From positions 1-64,000 of IMG/VR virus record IMGVR_UViG_3300033121_002354: a DNA stretch of 64,000 bases. One strand, written 5' to 3'. The notes below the pieces were generated by a model. It ran no database searches, was not told the DNA's origin, and worked only from the letters and a program-made list of their open reading frames with translations. The DNA is from a virus. Lineage: Duplodnaviria > Caudoviricetes. The position numbers and the translations under genes are program-made. Numbering within the stretch: the stretch's first letter is position 1; every line of letters begins with the position of its first letter. Shown in pieces: positions 3,000 through 13,367 of this stretch.

Positions 3000-3300
3000 T
3001 ACTATAGACTGGGACGATTTCTCGGAAAGCTTGATTAATATGCAAAAAGAGAAAGAGCGACTTATGTGTATTCTTCCTAAGACTGATGAAGAAGCTGATA
3101 AAATTTTTGCAGAAAACATGTTCAACGAGATACATAACTGTTTTTATGATTTACGTGAAAAAATTGAGTATTATTCAAAACCATCTCATCCTCATATATC
3201 TGCAGCATTTTCTCCATTAGCACAAAAAATATACGGTATGATAATTGATTTTCAGAGAGAATTAAACAAGCTTTCATGGTTCAATGAGGATGGCAAATGA
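2992..3300 (+). CDS. Hypothetical protein
   Basis: 102 aa, overlaps neighbours by a few bases. Confidence 0.6.
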   Translation: MNDTIDWDDFSESLINMQKEKERLMCILPKTDEEADKIFAENMFNEIHNCFYDLREKIEYYSKPSHPHISAAFSPLAQKIYGMIIDFQRELNKLSWFNEDGK

Positions 3301-3524
3301 AAACTGTCGTTGTGCAACATACTTTTGAAGTTGTTCATCAGGTGCCTGATGATTGGTCTGTGGATGACATTGAATTTTTCTTCAATGATTCGTCTTCTTG
3401 TTCAAACAATGTAGTTGATCAGATGCAAAAGCGGCCTGAAGGGTATTGCATGTGTGGCTCGCATTCTGCAAAATATCTAAGGGAAGCTGCAGAAATAGAC
3501 AAGGAAGGTTGGCTTTTAAAATGA
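3297..3524 (+). CDS. Hypothetical protein
   Basis: 75 aa, ATGA overlap, GAGG RBS. Confidence 0.6.
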   Translation: MKTVVVQHTFEVVHQVPDDWSVDDIEFFFNDSSSCSNNVVDQMQKRPEGYCMCGSHSAKYLREAAEIDKEGWLLK

Positions 3525-6892: not shown

Positions 6893-7159
6893 ATGGATAT
6901 ATATACTTGCCCATTAAATTACACGTTAAAAGAAGCTTTTAAAGAAAACAGAATACAATCTGGGTATTTATTGTTATTTAAAGATGGAACAAAAATACTA
7001 GTTGGTGATGCAACGTTGTTTCATGCTCCATCTGAATCTGATGCTGGAATTGGATGGGGTGATTTCTGTGATAAAGTAATTGATACAATTATAAAACTTG
7101 ATATACCAAATGTAATATCATACAACAAAAGGAGTAAAAATGAAACATTGAAAATATAA
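6893..7159 (+). CDS. Hypothetical protein
   Basis: 88 aa, AAGGA RBS. Confidence 0.55.
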   Translation: MDIYTCPLNYTLKEAFKENRIQSGYLLLFKDGTKILVGDATLFHAPSESDAGIGWGDFCDKVIDTIIKLDIPNVISYNKRSKNETLKI

Positions 7160-7209
7160 ATCTTTAGAATATAAGATTTTTTTGGAAAATCTAGTATAAT
7201 TATATACAG

Positions 7210-7806
7210 ATGTGGTTTAAAAAATGCCAAGCATTAATGTCTTTAAAGGAACATATTGTTAATGATCCAAATTTCAAGTCGTGGTTTGGAAATAGTAAAG
7301 TAGTAGATAAATTAGGCAAACCATTAATAGTCTATAAAGGAATGTATCCTTATGACTATACTAAAGAAAAACCATTAAAATCTAATCAATATGAATTAGA
7401 TTTCAGTCAACGTGGACCTGAATTAGATACTATAAAACGACCATCACCATTTCCAACATTTGATAAAAAAGATCAAGAACCAGTTAATGTAGCAGGATTT
7501 TTTACGGATGATCCAAAAATAGCTGCAAGTTTTGCATTTACATTTACTAAAGGAGCTGTATTTCCAGTATTTCTAAGAATAGAAAACCCAAAAATATTTG
7601 ATGCCAATGGTGCTCCATCGGGGACACTTCAATTTGAAGCACCTGGGAAACCATTTAGAGATGCTGTTAGAAGTGGACAATACGATGGGGTTTTTATATT
7701 AAATACAAAAGATGAAGGAAATGTTTTTATTCCATTAAAACCCAATCAAATCAAATCTGCAATCCATAGCAAATTTAACTTTAATGACCCACGATTTGCA
7801 TACTAA
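7210..7806 (+). CDS. ADP-ribosyltransferase-like protein (ART-PolyVal type domain)
   Basis: FKSWFGNSKVVDKLGKPLIVYKG...GFFTDDP...VFPVFLRIENP...GQYDGVFI...PNQIKSA follows the ART-PolyVal pattern. Confidence 0.7.
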   Translation: MWFKKCQALMSLKEHIVNDPNFKSWFGNSKVVDKLGKPLIVYKGMYPYDYTKEKPLKSNQYELDFSQRGPELDTIKRPSPFPTFDKKDQEPVNVAGFFTDDPKIAASFAFTFTKGAVFPVFLRIENPKIFDANGAPSGTLQFEAPGKPFRDAVRSGQYDGVFILNTKDEGNVFIPLKPNQIKSAIHSKFNFNDPRFAY

Positions 7807-7905
7807 ATAAAAAAAATATATTAATTTGCGGTCCCAGGAAGGAATTTTTCTTTTTATTCCGAATAGTAAAGTTCCAAGGGAATGTCTCCCTTAAAAGAGA
7901 GTATC

Positions 7906-7974
7906 ATGAACGTAACTAATCCATCTCCGGTTGACTTAGAACGGGAACATCCCGATAGGAGATGGATTATCTAG
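7906..7974 (+). CDS. Leader peptide A (MNVTNPSPVDLEREHPDRRWII); not in ORF track
   Basis: 22 codons after AAGAGAG; in-frame alternative ATG at 7882; stop codon lies within attenuator segment 2. Confidence 0.7.
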   Translation: MNVTNPSPVDLEREHPDRRWII

Positions 7975-8041
7975 GCTTTTTAAGAGCATGTACGCCTTAA
8001 GCCCTGATAATCCTGAATAAAAGGTTATCAGGGTTTTTTTT
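7917..8041 (+). promoter_or_regulatory. Ribosome-dependent transcription attenuator A
   Basis: 1:2 = 7917-7928/7958-7969 (12 bp perfect); 2:3 = 7964-7978/7999-8013 (13 of 15); 3:4 terminator = 7999-8012/8023-8036 plus T8. Confidence 0.75.
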
Positions 8042-8057
8042 GTTCAGGGATAATATC

Positions 8058-8294
8058 ATGAAAAAAATAAAACAAATTTCAGAAAATTATGGAGCAATTC
8101 ATTCTCGTAGAGTTTATCTTTTAGATTGCACCAAAGAAGAAAAACAACAACTAAAAGATGCATTAGCGATGTTTGCTAAAATAGAAAAAATTCTAGGAGT
8201 AAAACGCAAAAATGCAGATTGGACAATGTTGCATAGCTACGGTTTTAATCAAGATGGAGTTTATGTAACAGTAGATCAGGGAGCATGTGGATGA
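8058..8294 (+). CDS. Hypothetical protein
   Basis: ATG at 8058 with AGGGA RBS; first gene after attenuator A. Confidence 0.55.
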   Translation: MKKIKQISENYGAIHSRRVYLLDCTKEEKQQLKDALAMFAKIEKILGVKRKNADWTMLHSYGFNQDGVYVTVDQGACG

Positions 8295-8464
8295 TTAACA
8301 AAGAAAGACCTCAAGCCCTTATTCTGAAAGATGAGGATGGCTCAATTTATAAAGCCATTCATGAGGCTTTGTCAATTGGTCAGAAAGTGTATCTATTAAA
8401 ATATCAGGAAGATTATGTGGATAATATTTTAAAGAATGCAAGACGTATTCTTTCTGAAGAATAA
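8291..8464 (+). CDS. Hypothetical protein (57 aa, not in ORF track)
   Basis: ATGA overlap, GGAG RBS; MINKERPQALILKDEDG...RILSEE. Confidence 0.5.
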   Translation: MINKERPQALILKDEDGSIYKAIHEALSIGQKVYLLKYQEDYVDNILKNARRILSEE

Positions 8465-8477
8465 AAATGAAATTTGT

Positions 8478-8551
8478 GGGGCCGTAGCTCAATTGGTTAG
8501 AGCATCCGCTTGTCACGCGGAAGGTTGCGAGTTCAAGTCTCGTCGGTCTCG
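8478..8551 (+). tRNA. tRNA-Asp(GTC)
   Basis: Full cloverleaf; anticodon arm TCCGC-TTGTCAC-GCGGA; no encoded CCA. Confidence 0.95.
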
Positions 8552-8570
8552 TTTGAAAAGTGAATAATAT

Positions 8571-8644
8571 GCTCCCATCGTCTAGCGGTCTAGGATGCCT
8601 GGCCTTTCAAGCCGGGGGCGTGAGTTCAAATCTCACTGGGAGTA
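8571..8644 (+). tRNA. tRNA-Glu(TTC)
   Basis: GCTCCCA/TGGGAGT; CTGGC-CTTTCAA-GCCGG. Confidence 0.93.
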
Positions 8645-8649
8645 TTCAT

Positions 8650-8720
8650 TGGCTTATGGTGTAACGGTAGCACGGGAGATTTTGAATCTTTTAGTCAAGG
8701 TTCGAATCCTTGTAGGCCAG
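8650..8720 (+). tRNA. tRNA-Gln(TTG)
   Basis: TGGCTTA/TAGGCCA (U1-A72); GGAGA-TTTTGAA-TCTTT. Confidence 0.93.
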
Positions 8721-8724
8721 TTAC

Positions 8725-8797
8725 AGTCTCGTAACTCAATTGGCAGAGTGTCTGCTTTACATGCAGAATGTTACAGGTTCAAGTCCTGTCGAGACTA
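8725..8797 (+). tRNA. tRNA-Val(TAC)
   Basis: AGTCTCG/CGAGACT; TCTGC-TTTACAT-GCAGA. Confidence 0.95.
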
Positions 8798-8802
8798 AAT
8801 AC

Positions 8803-8876
8803 CAGAGCGTAGCCTAGTTGGTTCAGGCACTTGATTTGGGGTCAAGACCACGCAGGTTCGAGTCCTGCCGCTCTGA
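8803..8876 (+). tRNA. tRNA-Pro(TGG)
   Basis: CAGAGCG/CGCTCTG; CTTGA-TTTGGGG-TCAAG. Confidence 0.95.
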
Positions 8877-8878
8877 TT

Positions 8879-8952
8879 GTGACTGTAGCTTAATTGGATA
8901 GAGCACTGCCTTGTGACGGCGGGGGTTGTCGGTTCAAATCCGACCAGTCACC
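8879..8952 (+). tRNA. tRNA-His(GTG)
   Basis: GTGACTG/CAGTCAC, C73; CTGCC-TTGTGAC-GGCGG; base at -1 is T. Confidence 0.93.
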
Positions 8953-9338
8953 TTTAGTTCTTTAAAAGTTGGACGTTTCCATTTTGTTATAGAGTTTGTC
9001 AAGCCGGATTCAGAACTAATTATTGGTGACTTGCCAGTATAAATGGTACTAAATGCAACTTTGATACAATGTTTATTTTCATCGTAAAAGCATTCATAAT
9101 AATCGGAAGTGTTTAAATAGGCAAGTAAACTGGAAATTTGGTCACGTGTAAATACAATGTGTTCAATATATTCAACCCATCCTAAATCGATTCCAATTTC
9201 TGTCTCACTAATCAAACATATCCAAGAGAGTGTTCTATTTGCGAGTTTTTCAAGAGCATCTTTAAAATATTTCCATCTGTTTTCTGGTTCAATTAATTCG
9301 TCCAAAAAATGTGCTATTTTAAAATCTATATTTTCCAT
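8934..9338 (-). CDS. Hypothetical protein
   Basis: 134 aa; GTATAAT-N5-ATG upstream; 3' end overlaps tRNA-His on the opposite strand. Confidence 0.6.
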   Translation of the reverse strand: MENIDFKIAHFLDELIEPENRWKYFKDALEKLANRTLSWICLISETEIGIDLGWVEYIEHIVFTRDQISSLLAYLNTSDYYECFYDENKHCIKVAFSTIYTGKSPIISSESGLTNSITKWKRPTFKELKVTGRI

Positions 9339-9357
9339 GTGTAATTATACATTCTAA

Positions 9358-9449
9358 TACCGGGAGCAAGATTTGAACTTGCGATCTGCTGATTATGATT
9401 CAGTTGCTTTAAGCCACGGTATTCTCAGTTCAAATCGGAGCAGAGACAT
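9358..9449. pseudogene. Two tRNA 3' fragments fused back to back
   Basis: Minus 9358-9415: D-loop GG through ATCATAA loop, T-arm GCAAG-TTCAAAT-CTTGC, TCCCGGT-A. Plus ~9414-9448: CCACG-GTATT-CTCAG-TTCAAAT-CGGAG-CAGAGAC-A. Both lack 5' acceptor strands. Confidence 0.6.
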
Positions 9450-10099
9450 TATAAAACTTCAAGTGCTTTATCAAGCATAATTTTGACTAAGTTGCTATCT
9501 ACCTTTCCTTTAGTGATTTTCATAATTTTCCCTAAAAGAAATGGTTTAATTTTATCTCCTTTTTTTCCTTTAAAGTCTGCAATAGCTTCTGGATTTTCTG
9601 AAATAACTTGAGTTATTATATTAGGTAAATCACTTCTATTTTCTATAAAAAGATTGTATTTTTCTGCTATTTGCATTGGCATTTCTTTTGAAGCTAAACA
9701 TTTTTCAGCGATTATAGCGGCATTTTGTGGAGAAATTTTAGATTCATCAACCATAGATGCTATTTGTATAAAATGATCTACAGACAGTTTAAGTCCACTA
9801 ATTTTGCAGTTTTGTTTTTTGGCTATATTTGTCCAGAATCCCAAAAATTGTTTAATAACTATATTTGGATTTACTTTTGTACACAGATACATAAACAAAT
9901 CTACTGTGTCTAGATCTGTATTTATGACTACAACTTCTTTTTGCGTTAATTTATAGAGATCACATAATTGTTTATCTCTTTGGATTGGAGTTATAAATTT
10001 ATTTTTAGCGATTCTATTTTCTAATGATTCGTATGGTGTTTTTGGGGTAGAATCTGTTAATTCTTTTAATTTATTTTGTAAAAATTCTTTATATTCCAT
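9449..10099 (-). CDS. Stand-alone GatB C-terminal (GatB/YqeY) tRNA-binding domain protein
   Basis: KISPQNAAIIAE...IITQVISENPEAIADFKG...FLLGKIMKITKGKVDSNLV matches the GatB helical/tail region; no catalytic N-terminal domain. Confidence 0.8.
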   Translation of the reverse strand: MEYKEFLQNKLKELTDSTPKTPYESLENRIAKNKFITPIQRDKQLCDLYKLTQKEVVVINTDLDTVDLFMYLCTKVNPNIVIKQFLGFWTNIAKKQNCKISGLKLSVDHFIQIASMVDESKISPQNAAIIAEKCLASKEMPMQIAEKYNLFIENRSDLPNIITQVISENPEAIADFKGKKGDKIKPFLLGKIMKITKGKVDSNLVKIMLDKALEVL

Positions 10100-10116
10100 G
10101 TTTAATTATACTATAA

Positions 10117-10189
10117 TAGTGGCGACTGGAATCGAACCAGTGACTTTTGGATTATGATTCCAATGTTCTTCCAACTGAACTACGCCACT
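10117..10189 (-). tRNA. tRNA-Met(CAT), elongator type
   Basis: AGTGGCG/CGCCACT; TTGGA-ATCATAA-TCCAA; Ile2 identity not excluded. Confidence 0.88.
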
Positions 10190-10193
10190 ATAA

Positions 10194-10281
10194 CTGCGGG
10201 AGTTGGAATCGAACCAACGTGGGAGACAAGCTCCGAACGGTTAACAGCCGTTTGCAGACTACCAACATCTGCGGTCCCGCA
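10194..10281 (-). tRNA. tRNA-Asn(GTT) with long variable arm
   Basis: TGCGGGA/TCCCGCA, G73; AACGG-CTGTTAA-CCGTT; V-arm GGAG-CTTGT-CTCC. Confidence 0.85.
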
Positions 10282-10282
10282 T

Positions 10283-10354
10283 TGGGAATCACCAGAATCG
10301 AACTGGTCTAATCGGTGCTTCAAACCGATGCTCTACCGTCTAAGCTAGATTCCC
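10283..10354 (-). tRNA. tRNA-Phe(GAA)
   Basis: GGGAATC/GATTCCC; TCGGT-TTGAAGC-ACCGA. Confidence 0.92.
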
Positions 10355-10359
10355 GTAAA

Positions 10360-10431
10360 AGCTAACGGTGGGAATCGAACCCACGTAGTCCTGTTTACGA
10401 GACAGGTGCATAACCACTCTGCCACATTAGC
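10360..10431 (-). tRNA. tRNA-Thr(CGT)
   Basis: GCTAATG/CGTTAGC; CCTGT-CTCGTAA-ACAGG. Confidence 0.92.
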
Positions 10432-10437
10432 GTTAAA

Positions 10438-10509
10438 TGGAGCCACAGGGAGTCAAACCCTGAATTTCGCTGTGCAAGAGCGATATTTTATCAGTTAAAT
10501 TATGGCCCC
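10438..10509 (-). tRNA. tRNA-Ala(TGC), divergent D and T loops
   Basis: GGGGCCA/TGGCTCC with G3:U70; TCGCT-CTTGCAC-AGCGA; T-loop TTTGACT. Confidence 0.85.
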
Positions 10510-10513
10510 AAAA

Positions 10514-10586
10514 TTGGTGCGGGTGGAATTGGACCACCGACCTATTTGTTATCAGCAAATTGCTCTACCAACTGAGCTACGCACCA
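10514..10586 (-). tRNA. tRNA-Ile(GAT)
   Basis: TGGTGCG/CGCACCA; ATTTG-CTGATAA-CAAAT; T-loop TCCAATT. Confidence 0.9.
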
Positions 10587-10659
10587 AGTGAGTGATGGGA
10601 GTCGAACCCATATGATTTTGCTTGGCTAGCAAATGCCTGACCAATTAGGCTACACTCAC
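10587..10659 (-). tRNA. tRNA-Gly(GCC) with A33
   Basis: GTGAGTG/CACTCAC, U73; TTTGC-TAGCCAA-GCAAA. Confidence 0.8.
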
Positions 10660-10664
10660 AATAC

Positions 10665-10692
10665 CGGGCACGAAAGGATTCGAACCTTTTGC
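10665..10692 (-). pseudogene. 3' fragment of split tRNA (probably Ser)
   Basis: AAAGG-TTCGAAT-CCTTT-CGTGCCC-G; acceptor strand pairs with GGGCATG at 11596-11602. Confidence 0.8.
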
Positions 10693-10702
10693 AAAAAAAA
10701 AA

Positions 10703-10791
10703 CGGCGTGAGAAGGATTCCAACCTTCAAATCACTTTTGTGATCCGTCGAATAGCAATCGACTTCCCCGCAGCAATGAGGACAGTCACGCC
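10703..10791 (-). tRNA. tRNA-Ser(GCT), divergent
   Basis: GGCGTGA/TCACGCC, G73; GTCGA-TTGCTAT-TCGAC; long V-arm GATCAC-AAAA-GTGATT; atypical D-arm and T-loop TTGGAAT. Confidence 0.8.
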
Positions 10792-11510
10792 ATATTGATT
10801 AGTTCTTTTTTTCCAAATGTTCCATTTTTCATGCCGTAAATTTCGTTTTTACGTAATACTATTAATTTGTGCGGAAAATACAACCATTTTGCTCTGTCCT
10901 TTTCTGTTGCATATCCTTTAACTTCTATATAGCATTCTAAATCTTTTATAAAAAAATCTGGAGTGTAAAATCTGTATTTCCCATCAAAATAGTAAATAAA
11001 TCTATTTTTGTTGCGTTGCCAATAAAACGCCCATTCATCTAAACTTTGTGCAGTTTTTAATTCCCATGTTCCATCTACCATTATTTTTCCTGCAATCTGG
11101 CTATTGTATTCTATTTTTTTGCACCTTCCAGCTTTAGGCAACCATCCTGCAGCATATCGCTTGTTTATTGACTCGCTAATTTTTTGACACCTTTCTTTTT
11201 CTTTTTCAGCAGTCTGTCCTAGACCAGAGCATCGACCGCGTAAAGCGGCAGACATTTTTTCTCTAATTTCTTTTGCTCTTTCTGATCCATAAGATTCTTC
11301 ATAACTCTTACCTTTGTTTGGTGGCTCTTTTCCTAAACGTGGTCTATGAGGCTCAGTTTTGTTTTTAAGGAATAGAGGAATATGCCCTTTTTTACTCTCA
11401 CTATCTTTTTTCCTTTTTGCAGGGCATTTATTTACATTTTCAGAGCAACAATAATTTCCATTTTTAAATTGGTGAATCGCGTCTAATCCACAACCATAAT
11501 TACACTTCAT
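10785..11510 (-). CDS. Putative homing endonuclease (NUMOD-like DNA-binding region plus PD-(D/E)XK domain)
   Basis: N-terminal CNYGCG...CCSE..CP; PPNKGKSYEESYG.ERAKEIREKMS; FYTPDFFI...YIEVKG. Confidence 0.75.
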   Translation of the reverse strand: MKCNYGCGLDAIHQFKNGNYCCSENVNKCPAKRKKDSESKKGHIPLFLKNKTEPHRPRLGKEPPNKGKSYEESYGSERAKEIREKMSAALRGRCSGLGQTAEKEKERCQKISESINKRYAAGWLPKAGRCKKIEYNSQIAGKIMVDGTWELKTAQSLDEWAFYWQRNKNRFIYYFDGKYRFYTPDFFIKDLECYIEVKGYATEKDRAKWLYFPHKLIVLRKNEIYGMKNGTFGKKELINMA

Positions 11511-11512
11511 TA

Positions 11513-11543
11513 GATTCTCCTAAAACATATTATTAGGAGAATC
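11513..11543 (-). promoter_or_regulatory. Hairpin sequestering the endonuclease RBS
   Basis: GATTCTCCTAA-9 nt-TTAGGAGAATC, perfect 11-bp stem ending 2 nt before ATG. Confidence 0.75.
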
Positions 11544-11567
11544 GTTTAAATATCCTGTATAAATATT

Positions 11568-11602
11568 CAAACTGCTGGTTTCACCCGCTCACCCACATGC
11601 CC
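11568..11602 (-). pseudogene. 5' fragment of split tRNA (probably Ser-GCT)
   Basis: GGGCATG-TG-GGT-GAGCGGGTGAA-ACC-A-GCAGT-TTG, breaking in the anticodon loop. Confidence 0.8.
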
Positions 11603-11605
11603 AAA

Positions 11606-11693
11606 CGGATGGAGGAGGAGTCGAACCCCCAAACCCCCTTTCAGAGATTGTCGCTTTTCAAAAGCGGTGGGCCTGCCAATGCCCAATCCATCC
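11606..11693 (-). tRNA. tRNA-Ser(TGA)
   Basis: GGATGGA/TCCATCC, G73; CGCT-TTTGAAA-AGCG; long V-arm. Confidence 0.9.
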
Positions 11694-11699
11694 AGAAAA

Positions 11700-11783
11700 T
11701 GCACAGTGATGGACTCGAACCACCGCAGCCCCGAAGGGCATCTGAGATACAGTCAGACGCAATTGCCGCTCTGCCAACTGTGC
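11700..11783 (-). tRNA. tRNA-Tyr(GTA)
   Basis: GCACAGT/ACTGTGC; TCTGA-CTGTATC-TCAGA; V-arm GCCC-TTCG-GGGC. Confidence 0.9.
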
Positions 11784-11811
11784 AAAATATATTCACTTTT
11801 TAAAGATCTAC

Positions 11812-11882
11812 AGACACAGGTGAGAGTCGAACTCACGATCACAGTTTTGCAGACTGTTGCCTTGCCACTTGGCTACTGCGTC
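11812..11882 (-). tRNA. tRNA-Cys(GCA)
   Basis: GACGCAG/CTGTGTC, U73; ACAGT-CTGCAAA-ACTGT. Confidence 0.95.
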
Positions 11883-11889
11883 AGTACAC

Positions 11890-12033
11890 AAAAAAAGCCC
11901 CGATAAACTTTTTTGTTTACCGGAGCTTGCTGTGCCTTTGTGATTTCAGCCAATCTACATTAGGCGTAGCTCCGGTGCGTTAGTGGCGGCGTTATTACCG
12001 CAACTATACCCTGTAAATGAGCTACACATAATG
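11890..12033 (-). promoter_or_regulatory. Ribosome-dependent transcription attenuator B
   Basis: 1:2 = 12019-12033/11958-11972 (14 of 15); 2:3 core ACCGGAGCT 11968-11976 / AGCTCCGGT 11919-11927; 3:4 terminator 11915-11928/11895-11908 (14 bp) plus T7, ending 7 nt before tRNA-Cys. Confidence 0.85.
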
Positions 12034-12050
12034 GACTGCTGACGTTTCAT
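11955..12050 (-). CDS. Leader peptide B (MKRQQSIMCSSFTGYSCGNNAATNAPELRLM); not in ORF track
   Basis: 31 codons; ATG 6 nt after a -10 box; composition mirrors the downstream tRNAs. Confidence 0.82.
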   Translation of the reverse strand: MKRQQSIMCSSFTGYSCGNNAATNAPELRLM

Positions 12051-12056
12051 GCTTGT

Positions 12057-12085
12057 ATACTACCCTATTTTTCGTCCTGGGGCAA
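12057..12085 (-). promoter_or_regulatory. Sigma70-type promoter of leader B / tRNA operon
   Basis: TTGCCC-17 nt-TAGTAT-6 nt-ATG (leaderless). Confidence 0.65.
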
Positions 12086-12320
12086 GTAAAATCCTTTAAA
12101 AATTTTTGAACATCTTTTGATTTTATTTTTCATCTATTTTATATTTCGAAGATGAAAAAGATAAATATTGATGAGTTAAGCGATTTTCGTGGAACTTTAG
12201 GAGAGTTTAGAAGAATCGTAAATCGACTTATAAAAAAATATGGAACAGAATCTAAGATCGAATTTGACGCTGGATATAACAATGTAGAAGTTCTTATACA
12301 GACAGAAAAAAAGGAATAAT

Positions 12321-12707
12321 ATGGAGTTAGACCCAATTATAGAAGAATGTCGTGATCTTTTAAAAGATAATAAATATGAAATAACAGAGAATGGTCTTAC
12401 ACTCACTGTGATTATGCATATGTCTTTGCCAAAATTAAGAGCAGACATAAGAGACGTTCATTTTAAGGGTGATTTTAATAATTTCTTATTTCCATCTATT
12501 TTAAGCACTATAAACATAAGAATAGTAGGACAGGGTTTGGAAGAAACGATATTAAAACTTAGTGGTTTTAAAGAGCGTGTTAAGAAGTTCAAAAAGAAAT
12601 TAGGAGAAGTTGCATTTGCTTATGATGAAAAAAACTGGGATCAGGTCCGTAATATGGTTGTAGATAAAGCAGTTAACTTGCATCAAAAATCAATGGGATA
12701 TGTATAG
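12321..12707 (+). CDS. Hypothetical protein
   Basis: 128 aa, AAGGA RBS. Confidence 0.6.
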   Translation: MELDPIIEECRDLLKDNKYEITENGLTLTVIMHMSLPKLRADIRDVHFKGDFNNFLFPSILSTINIRIVGQGLEETILKLSGFKERVKKFKKKLGEVAFAYDEKNWDQVRNMVVDKAVNLHQKSMGYV

Positions 12708-12908
12708 TTAGTCTATATATCTTATATTTGGGCAAGGAGGTTCATTGTGGCTTTTGGCATATATTTATTATGTTTAATTGATTTTGGGATATTAGCAGCT
12801 TTGTGTGGTATTTTGTATTTTATGTGGTTATTTTATACAAAGATTTTCAATCAAGATGGGACAATAGATATTTCTGAAGTTTTTCCTACGAGTTGGTTAA
12901 TGAAATAA

Positions 12909-13367
12909 TTACTCATTTTCTTTTGCCACTAAATTCCAGCCATTATTATATGAGTAATAAGAGATTATGTCCTCTTGTACAACTTTAATCAACGTACAAG
13001 ATGACATGGGTACAGTAATGCAGCATATGCTTCCTTGTTGCGGAAGCATATCAAAATATGTCAGTTTACCATTATCGTATTTTACTGTTATGCTAAAATC
13101 GAAAGGATTTTTGTTTCTAGTAACATTTTCGTAGGAATGAAAATACCCTGCTTTTTCTTCATATTCTGAGTGAGAAGGACATTTCTCTGGCAGATTAAAA
13201 CATAGTTTTTCATCGCCATGAAACAACGTTACATCTGTTTCCCTAAGAGAAATAAGGAAGTGAGCCATTTCCTTATGACTCATTCCTTTAACTGTATTAG
13301 CTGCAGCTTTTGGTATTTGTGGTACAGCTAACGCTACGCTGGTCGCTATAAATTCTCTTCTGTTCAT
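12909..13367 (-). CDS. Hypothetical protein with Tat-like signal
   Basis: MNRREFIATSVALAVPQIPKAAA; GAGGT RBS. Confidence 0.65.
   Translation of the reverse strand: MNRREFIATSVALAVPQIPKAAANTVKGMSHKEMAHFLISLRETDVTLFHGDEKLCFNLPEKCPSHSEYEEKAGYFHSYENVTRNKNPFDFSITVKYDNGKLTYFDMLPQQGSICCITVPMSSCTLIKVVQEDIISYYSYNNGWNLVAKENE

Follow-up and report, generated by a model that had tools for sequence, protein, structure and literature searches.

Leader-peptide attenuators are known from the enterobacteria, where they include trpL, hisL, leuL and pheL as well as the multivalent thrL (Thr and Ile) and ilvGMEDA (Ile, Leu and Val). The pheST attenuator of Escherichia coli puts a gene of the translation apparatus under leader-peptide control that responds to charged tRNA, and the T-box, again a terminator/antiterminator switch, senses tRNA charging and controls translation-related genes. 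The role of the tRNAs that phages encode has itself been debated for decades, the proposals being codon compensation, host tRNA decay and escape from tRNA-cleaving defences. Here we analyse two convergent tRNA arrays, array A on the + strand and array B on the - strand, in a 64-kb window of viral DNA (Caudoviricetes), which is the first 64 kb of the 113-kb IMG/VR virus record IMGVR_UViG_3300033121_002354. Each array is preceded by a short open reading frame (ORF), leader A or leader B, and from the sequence we argue that both arrays are probably under ribosome-mediated, i.e. leader-peptide, transcription attenuators, a reading to which we give a probability of about 0.72.

A regulated tRNA array has been described in Anabaena sp. 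PCC 7120, whose trn operon, an accessory array of tRNA genes, is off by default and switched on when translation is impaired (PMC8421152). Its control is exerted at the promoter by direct repeats and the repressor TrcR (PMC8421152, PMC10272220), and the words 'leader' and 'attenuat' are absent from both texts. As for phages, three reports describe phage tRNAs as a counter to tRNA-targeting immunity, namely anticodon nucleases, retron effectors and PARIS (PMC10264068, PMC11555353, PMC11464382), and for this reason tRNAs made on demand appear plausible for a phage. PMC10264068, when searched, mentioned neither an attenuator nor a leader, terminator or promoter of phage tRNA genes, and in our full-text literature searches leader-peptide attenuation of tRNA genes was not found described.

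The sequence verdict is confirmed as strong for leader B and as moderate for leader A. The leader B peptide can be divided into MKRQQ-SIMCSSFTGYSCGNNAATNA-PELRLM-stop, the middle part being the control codons 6-25 (12035-11976). The first-pass annotation, made from the letters alone, had noticed that these codons are confined to C, Y, S, G, I, A, T, F, N and M (set B). This was borne out for 20 of 20 codons, and in addition all ten amino acids of the set are present (10/10); they are exactly those of the 11 tRNAs downstream of leader B. As background for the composition we used the six-frame translation of the 113-kb record (213,715 residues in 6153 stop-to-stop segments), in which the leader B core ranked at the top, being both the longest set-B run (20 residues; the next has 18) and the only segment with complete coverage of the set. 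It is placed directly upstream of array B and on the correct strand. Most of the amino acids are used one to four times each, and both Ser codon boxes (UCC/UCA and AGC/AGU) occur, as for tRNA-Ser(UGA) and tRNA-Ser(GCU). The region folds with z = -5.5. The tRNA-Cys gene starts (11882) 7 nucleotides (nt) past the U-run of terminator B, and since there are only these 7 nt, array B has no room for a promoter of its own after the terminator and its transcription must therefore pass through it. With the -10 element of the promoter-like site ending 6 nt before the ATG (12050), we infer that the leader B mRNA is leaderless or nearly so.

Both leaders showed by folding the mutually exclusive 1:2, 2:3 and 3:4 (terminator) helices that the first-pass annotation had described, and the stop codons, which it had placed on or beside segment 2, lie inside segment 2 in both. 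When each leader was shuffled 1000 times with dinucleotides preserved, an antiterminator duplex as good with the 5' arm of the terminator was obtained in 1/1000 shuffles for B and in 1/1000 for A, and the leader fold was equalled in stability by 3/1000 (B) and 8/1000 (A); duplex and minimum free energy (MFE) of the leader were jointly as good in none of the 1000 shuffles of either leader. We then modelled the ribosome as a mask: the transcript was cut off before segment 4, and only its part past the leading edge of the ribosome (A site +13) was folded; the measure used at first, which counted any upstream pairing of segment 3, failed to discriminate, and the 2:3 helix was taken in its place. 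In this model leader B has its 2:3 helix as long as the A site is on codons 2-21; half of the helix is lost at codon 22 and all of it from codon 23 on. Leader A has its 2:3 helix with the A site on codons 2-16 and none from codon 18. Thus, in the model, the antiterminator of both leaders is lost with the ribosome at the distal codons or the stop, segment 2 being freed only at early or control codons, which agrees with the geometry of trp/his/leu-type attenuators noted at first sight. All ten set-B amino acids are found within codons 6-22 of leader B.

Leader composition, which the first-pass annotation proposed to compare with tRNA content in related phages, does co-vary with it in independent contigs. 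Loci were drawn blind to leaders, by the pattern T7, 8-30 nt and then a canonical D-arm, which gave 116 viral loci. A rule based on geometry only took as a block at least 3 isotypes with a terminator at most 110 nt upstream of the first tRNA, and as its leader the ATG-started ORF of 10-60 codons with the stop closest to the terminator. Of 10 unique blocks preceded by a terminator, 8 had all their isotypes covered by the leader chosen in this way, as against 0.9 expected from 11,282 pooled short ORFs (Poisson-binomial P = 2.4e-8), and when the sets were swapped among the leaders (cross-match permutation) p was 5e-5. In one of the two blocks without full coverage the rule had chosen a nested ORF in place of the one that matches. 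One more matching leader, at L135, and one non-matching block came from a smaller second scan, in which another D-arm was used. The loci L115, L075, L077, L060, L068, L057 and L041 had first been picked up by a composition scan (Table 1). In most of the positive loci the best partner of the terminator 5' arm ends just ahead of the leader stop codon. Between L115 and its homologue L075 the control codons are kept with one synonymous change and the flanks diverge, and the terminator stem carries a compensatory C>T / G>A pair. The DnaE-type polymerase of the phage in the window is missing from two complete positive records, of 128 kb and 310 kb, and the leader device is therefore not limited to one lineage.

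Leader and array match at the level of the amino acid, for Ser and Leu also at that of the codon box, and not at that of the individual codon. We also considered leaders matched codon by codon, an idea which was dropped as the codon-anticodon test was not significant; the test was limited to amino acids of which the array anticodons read some codons and not others.

Leader A is carried by its geometry and by its parallel with leader B, and not by composition alone. Its control codons 6-17 (PSPVDLEREHPD) contain 9 of 12 residues from the array A set D, E, Q, V, P and H, the nine being P, V, D, E or H, and this enrichment is equalled by 136 of 122,200 genome windows. The region folds with z = -3.7, the 1:2 helix being present in both the MFE and the centroid fold, and a weak Shine-Dalgarno-like GAGAG is found at -9 to -5. 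That codons 8-20 of leader A are free of set-B residues, as was claimed, is true, but these boundaries were set post hoc, codons 2-7 including N, T, N and S; likewise the claimed split of the amino acid alphabet between the two leader cores is partly an artefact of the boundaries, leader A being the looser roster. The proposal that L, R and W in leader A predict missing tRNAs failed, as R18, R19 and W20 are in segment 2; being outside the sensing zone there, they need no Arg or Trp tRNAs, and the whole 113 kb contains no tRNAs other than the 17. Set-A residues are also frequent in a stretch at 3306, which was considered as a third leader and rejected, as it is part of a 75-aa gene in a chain of overlapping genes. 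This real gene, at 3297, equals the enrichment of leader A by chance. A near-identical strain of the phage was noticed in a wastewater metagenome run. In this strain 7912-7924 inside leader A is swapped for 181 nt, a net gain of 168 that is divisible by three and in frame, 8041-8300 is swapped for 40 nt so that the first small ORF is gone, and the leader B start region is retained with a single change at -1.

We propose that the leaders would work as follows. RNA polymerase would start at a promoter just 5' of the 22- or 31-codon ORF. A ribosome reaching the distal codons or the stop would mask segment 2, so that the 3:4 terminator forms and the tRNAs are off, and with no ribosome loaded segment 2 would be kept in the 1:2 helix, with the same outcome. 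If an aminoacyl-tRNA is scarce, a stall at any control codon would allow the 2:3 pairing, which would block the terminator and give read-through into the array. Each leader would thus behave as a multi-input OR gate that responds when any tRNA of its own set is short, and once supply is restored expression would go off again, making tRNA synthesis demand-driven and self-limiting. The OR-gate attenuator had already been put forward in the first-pass annotation, and is supported by the sequence logic and by the comparative statistics; we infer that the leaders are translated, that read-through depends on stalling and that there is a natural trigger. Candidate causes of a stall would be tRNA-cleaving defences of the kind dealt with in PMC10264068, PMC11555353 and PMC11464382, host tRNA decay, amino-acid limitation and the codon-usage mismatch of an AT-rich phage.

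Several observations weigh against attenuation by leader peptides, or against parts of it. Codons of the leaders that are read by array tRNAs numbered 43 against 36.9 expected (z = 1.56), which is not above chance, and in leader B ACA/ACU face tRNA-Thr(CGU) and GGG faces tRNA-Gly(GCC). Leader B is without a Shine-Dalgarno sequence and depends on the leaderless start suggested above, its codons 23-25 are outside the modelled sensing zone, and array B is interrupted by a 726-nt ORF, and internal promoters may exist. In leader A the enrichment is modest, about 1e-3 per genome window, Gln is absent (five of the six array A amino acids are spelled), and the sensing zone holds N2, T4, N5 and S7, which are array B amino acids, together with L11 and R13. 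The two ORFs 8058-8294 and 8285-8464, unmentioned in the first-pass annotation, separate terminator A from tRNA-Asp. No homologue of leader A or B was found in the searches described below. Among other phages, five unrelated tRNA-rich large-phage loci found with a tRNA-Cys D-arm pattern had no matched leaders, and most tRNA blocks in the samples are without such a leader. The five loci are negatives, and a match between leader and array is not automatic.

The same attenuator could also serve another purpose, i.e. timing or autoregulation, sensing general host translation (shut-off or ribosome availability) or the feedback of phage tRNAs and not a specific shortage caused by nucleases or starvation. 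A match at the level of the amino acid does fit a general sensor of charged tRNA, and fits a detector of isoacceptor loss less well, and by the mask model a build-up of phage tRNA would necessarily shut the circuit, so that feedback would be built in. But a general sensor needs no block-by-block list of its own isotypes, and in the classical design the absence of translation leads to termination and not to read-through, which makes this purpose unlikely. It is highly improbable that the two regions are untranslated structured 5' RNAs, acting as processing or stability elements or binding a protein or a tRNA directly in the manner of a T-box, with terminators that are leaky by default. Such RNAs would account for regions that fold far better than shuffles and for a leader B that lacks a Shine-Dalgarno sequence, and phage tRNA precursors do need 5' processing. 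Left unexplained would be the in-frame 20-codon run of the ten amino acids of the array and its recurrence in unrelated loci; the control codons of L115 and L075 are conserved with only a synonymous change, and Rfam families, T-box included, gave no match at E<=1.

Coincidence, that is ordinary terminators and chance short ORFs before arrays with promoters of their own, would be conceivable for leader A taken alone, at about 1e-3 per genome window and with an equal stretch in the real gene at 3297, all the more so as AT-rich DNA is full of short ORFs. It is strongly disfavoured, to the point of being barely credible, by leader B, which is first of 6153 segments with 10/10 coverage, by antiterminator pairing equalled in 1/1000 shuffles per leader, by the mere 7 nt from the U-run to tRNA-Cys and by recurrence in independent loci with P of about 2e-8. 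The short ORFs could lastly encode functional micropeptides whose composition is unrelated to regulation, and they are indeed intact and lie beside promoter-like sites; yet beyond the control residues no peptide conservation exists across the loci, the sequences vary with the tRNA set and the C-terminal parts are dictated by segment 2, which leaves this explanation a negligible chance. Leader-peptide attenuation of the two arrays therefore remains the explanation that we favour.

Table 1. Features of the two leader-array units in the window and tRNA blocks with leaders in other viral contigs
Feature	Position	Strand	Details
Promoter-like TTTGCA-N16-TATATT	7795-7822	+	consensus scan only, weak; could start the leader A transcript
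Leader A ORF	7906-7974	+	MNVTNPSPVDLEREHPDRRWII; 22 codons; stop codon 7972-7974
Leader A 1:2 helix	7917-7928 with 7958-7969	+	12 bp; folding
Leader A antiterminator 2:3	7964-7978 with 7999-8013	+	13/15 bp, -17.4 kcal/mol; stop codon in segment 2
Leader A intrinsic terminator	8002-8041	+	hairpin 8002-8033 and U8 (8034-8041)
Two small ORFs	8058-8294 and 8285-8464	+	78 and 59 aa; no family
tRNA array A	8477-8952	+	Asp(GUC), Glu(UUC), Gln(UUG), Val(UAC), Pro(UGG), His(GUG); ARAGORN, Rfam
Promoter-like TTGCCC-N17-TAGTAT	12085-12057	-	read from sequence; not listed by consensus scan
Leader B ORF	12050-11955	-	MKRQQSIMCSSFTGYSCGNNAATNAPELRLM; 31 codons; stop codon 11957-11955
Leader B 1:2 helix	12041-12019 with 11972-11947	-	includes stop codon; folding
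Leader B antiterminator 2:3	11976-11968 with 11927-11919	-	ACCGGAGCU with AGCUCCGGU; 9 bp, -17.9 kcal/mol
Leader B intrinsic terminator	11928-11890	-	14-bp stem 11928-11895 and U7 (11896-11890)
tRNA array B	11882-10116	-	Cys, Tyr, Ser(UGA), ORF, Ser(GCU), Gly, Ile, Ala, Thr, Phe, Asn, Met (transcription order); ARAGORN, Rfam
Candidate distal part of operon B	8934-10099	-	GatB_Yqey protein, tRNA-Met-like gene, 134-aa ORF (9338-8934)
L115 block 1			Phe-Glu-Asp-Ala; leader MRTFANIFDFAFFAAEEDCF..., run FDFAFFAAEED
L115 block 2			Cys-Val-Leu-Leu; leader MNNFTNILVPSVLCLLLVDQ..., run LVPSVLCLLLV
L075			homologue of the first L115 cassette
L077 block			Phe-Tyr-Ser-Trp-Cys-Ser-Leu-Leu; leader MFNFVQPCLYWSLFSH..., run CLYWSLFS; both Ser and both Leu codon boxes
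L077 second block	9328-9624 and upstream		Pro-Gly; ORF starting MPGG, strong terminator
L060			F, L, G, D, W, A
L068			F, P, A, W, Q, I
L057			A, I, F, E, D, K
L041			further case from the composition scan
L135			Thr-Asn-Pro-Ser-Ser; leader MKTLNTTNSSTAPVNLGGLLL, run NTTNSSTAP; both Ser boxes; terminator 8 nt before array

The record that holds the window has a CheckV completeness of 23% and probably represents only part of a very large phage; its GC content is about 35%, and a PHROG or Pfam family is absent for most of its proteins. The 17 tRNAs in convergent + and - arrays that had been read from the letters are exactly those found by ARAGORN, and Rfam agrees. Array B is split by an endonuclease-like ORF (11510-10785, - strand; 726 nt, 241 aa). 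We noticed that this ORF and tRNA-Ser(GCU) are bracketed by a pair of tRNA halves, a 5' half at 11604-11566 (-) and a 3' half, with T-arm and acceptor, at 10701-10660 (-), which when joined in silico give a tRNA fold of class-I length with the anticodon UGA, UGU or UUU depending on the junction chosen. The tRNA-Asn(GUU) at 10194-10281 (-) is 88 nt long and has a long paired variable arm, unusual for Asn, its best Rfam score being tRNA-Sec-like and below threshold. Probably inside the tRNA operon lies a stand-alone protein with a GatB_Yqey domain (10099-9449, -; Pfam 6.5e-24), and 3' of its gene a tRNA-Met-like gene (9420-9358, -) of 63 nt with a CAU anticodon and a reduced D-arm, which scores 33 bits with the Rfam tRNA model, is missed by standard ARAGORN and is called Met(CAU) in mitochondrial mode. 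The GatB_Yqey gene, the tRNA-Met-like gene and the 134-aa ORF are likely the distal part of operon B. On the other side, the gene adjoining leader A upstream (7210-7806, +) encodes an ART-PolyVal ADP-ribosyltransferase domain (Pfam 1.9e-12). Among the other loci, L077 is an unrelated complete 128-kb phage record, and its Pro-Gly block looks like a minimal version of the leader device.

No close relative of the phage was found in GenBank phages, IMG/VR or a large protein collection. When 50,697 phage records were searched by blastn with the region and with leader B, only generic tRNA matches came up. IMG/VR scans with the ART-PolyVal neighbour gave 9 loci in viral contigs with 41-49% identity, none with tRNAs nearby, and scans with the GatB_Yqey protein and with the DnaE-type polymerase gave no match. 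The GatB_Yqey protein found only itself in a word-indexed search of a 5.8-billion-protein collection (216-aa query, near lengths only), tblastn with the DnaE-type polymerase reached at most 34% identity, and an exact 24-mer of leader A had no match in metagenome contigs. None of the sequencing runs listed as containing this DNA was an RNA run. In a cmscan of 7000-13000 at E<=1 only tRNA-type and spurious matches were obtained, with no Rfam leader family in 7800-8050 or 11885-12090 and no T-box. The DnaE-type replicative polymerase of this phage is encoded by two adjacent ORFs (382 and 641 aa; L017:16077-19150, i.e. record positions of about 98,077-101,150), which match successive parts of a single PHROG polymerase profile.

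As a wider and tentative proposal, which is possible and to which we would not commit ourselves, several unrelated large-phage lineages may sort their tRNA genes into modules, each with its own roster leader, and in this way obtain a demand-driven and self-limiting supply that comes on when the matching host tRNAs are cleaved by anticodon nucleases, degraded or uncharged. The leaders would then sense tRNA-targeting immunity by way of the ribosome, and would be the first known case of attenuators that control tRNA genes. A leader that lists its array would imply that phage tRNAs are conditional tools and not constitutive supplements, and would give a directly testable read-out of what the phage senses. 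Matched short ORFs before tRNA blocks can be searched for systematically in annotation, and such leaders could be of use in engineering as compact, modular sensors of decoding capacity.

When compared with the known systems, the two units are most like the trp, his, leu, thr and ilv leaders, with which they share a short ORF by a promoter, control codons, exclusive 1:2, 2:3 and 3:4 helices and a terminator with a U-run. As in trp-type leaders, the position of the stop codon would let a terminating ribosome mask segment 2, which here is predicted by the folding model. Each structural feature of leader-peptide attenuators that we tested was found at both loci, the promoters as consensus matches only. 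Unlike the leaders of amino-acid operons, those described here precede tRNA genes (together with two small ORFs in A and the GatB_Yqey protein in B) and not biosynthetic or synthetase genes, and unlike trp-type leaders they are phage-borne and spell up to ten different amino acids in place of runs of one; they have no sequence or Rfam relationship with the curated Rfam Trp, His, Leu, Thr, Phe and other leaders. The pheST attenuator uses one amino acid and has a protein-coding synthetase target, whereas here the product is tRNA and the input would be the roster of the whole array. The T-box binds one uncharged tRNA directly by its specifier codon and without a ribosome, whereas the signal here is that of an in-frame ORF. 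The nearest regulated tRNA array in print, the trn operon of Anabaena, is cellular and controlled at its promoter, and the phage leaders would be of the attenuator type. Taken together, the two leaders would extend trp-type attenuation to tRNA genes and its input to up to ten amino acids, as compared with two or three in thr and ilv.

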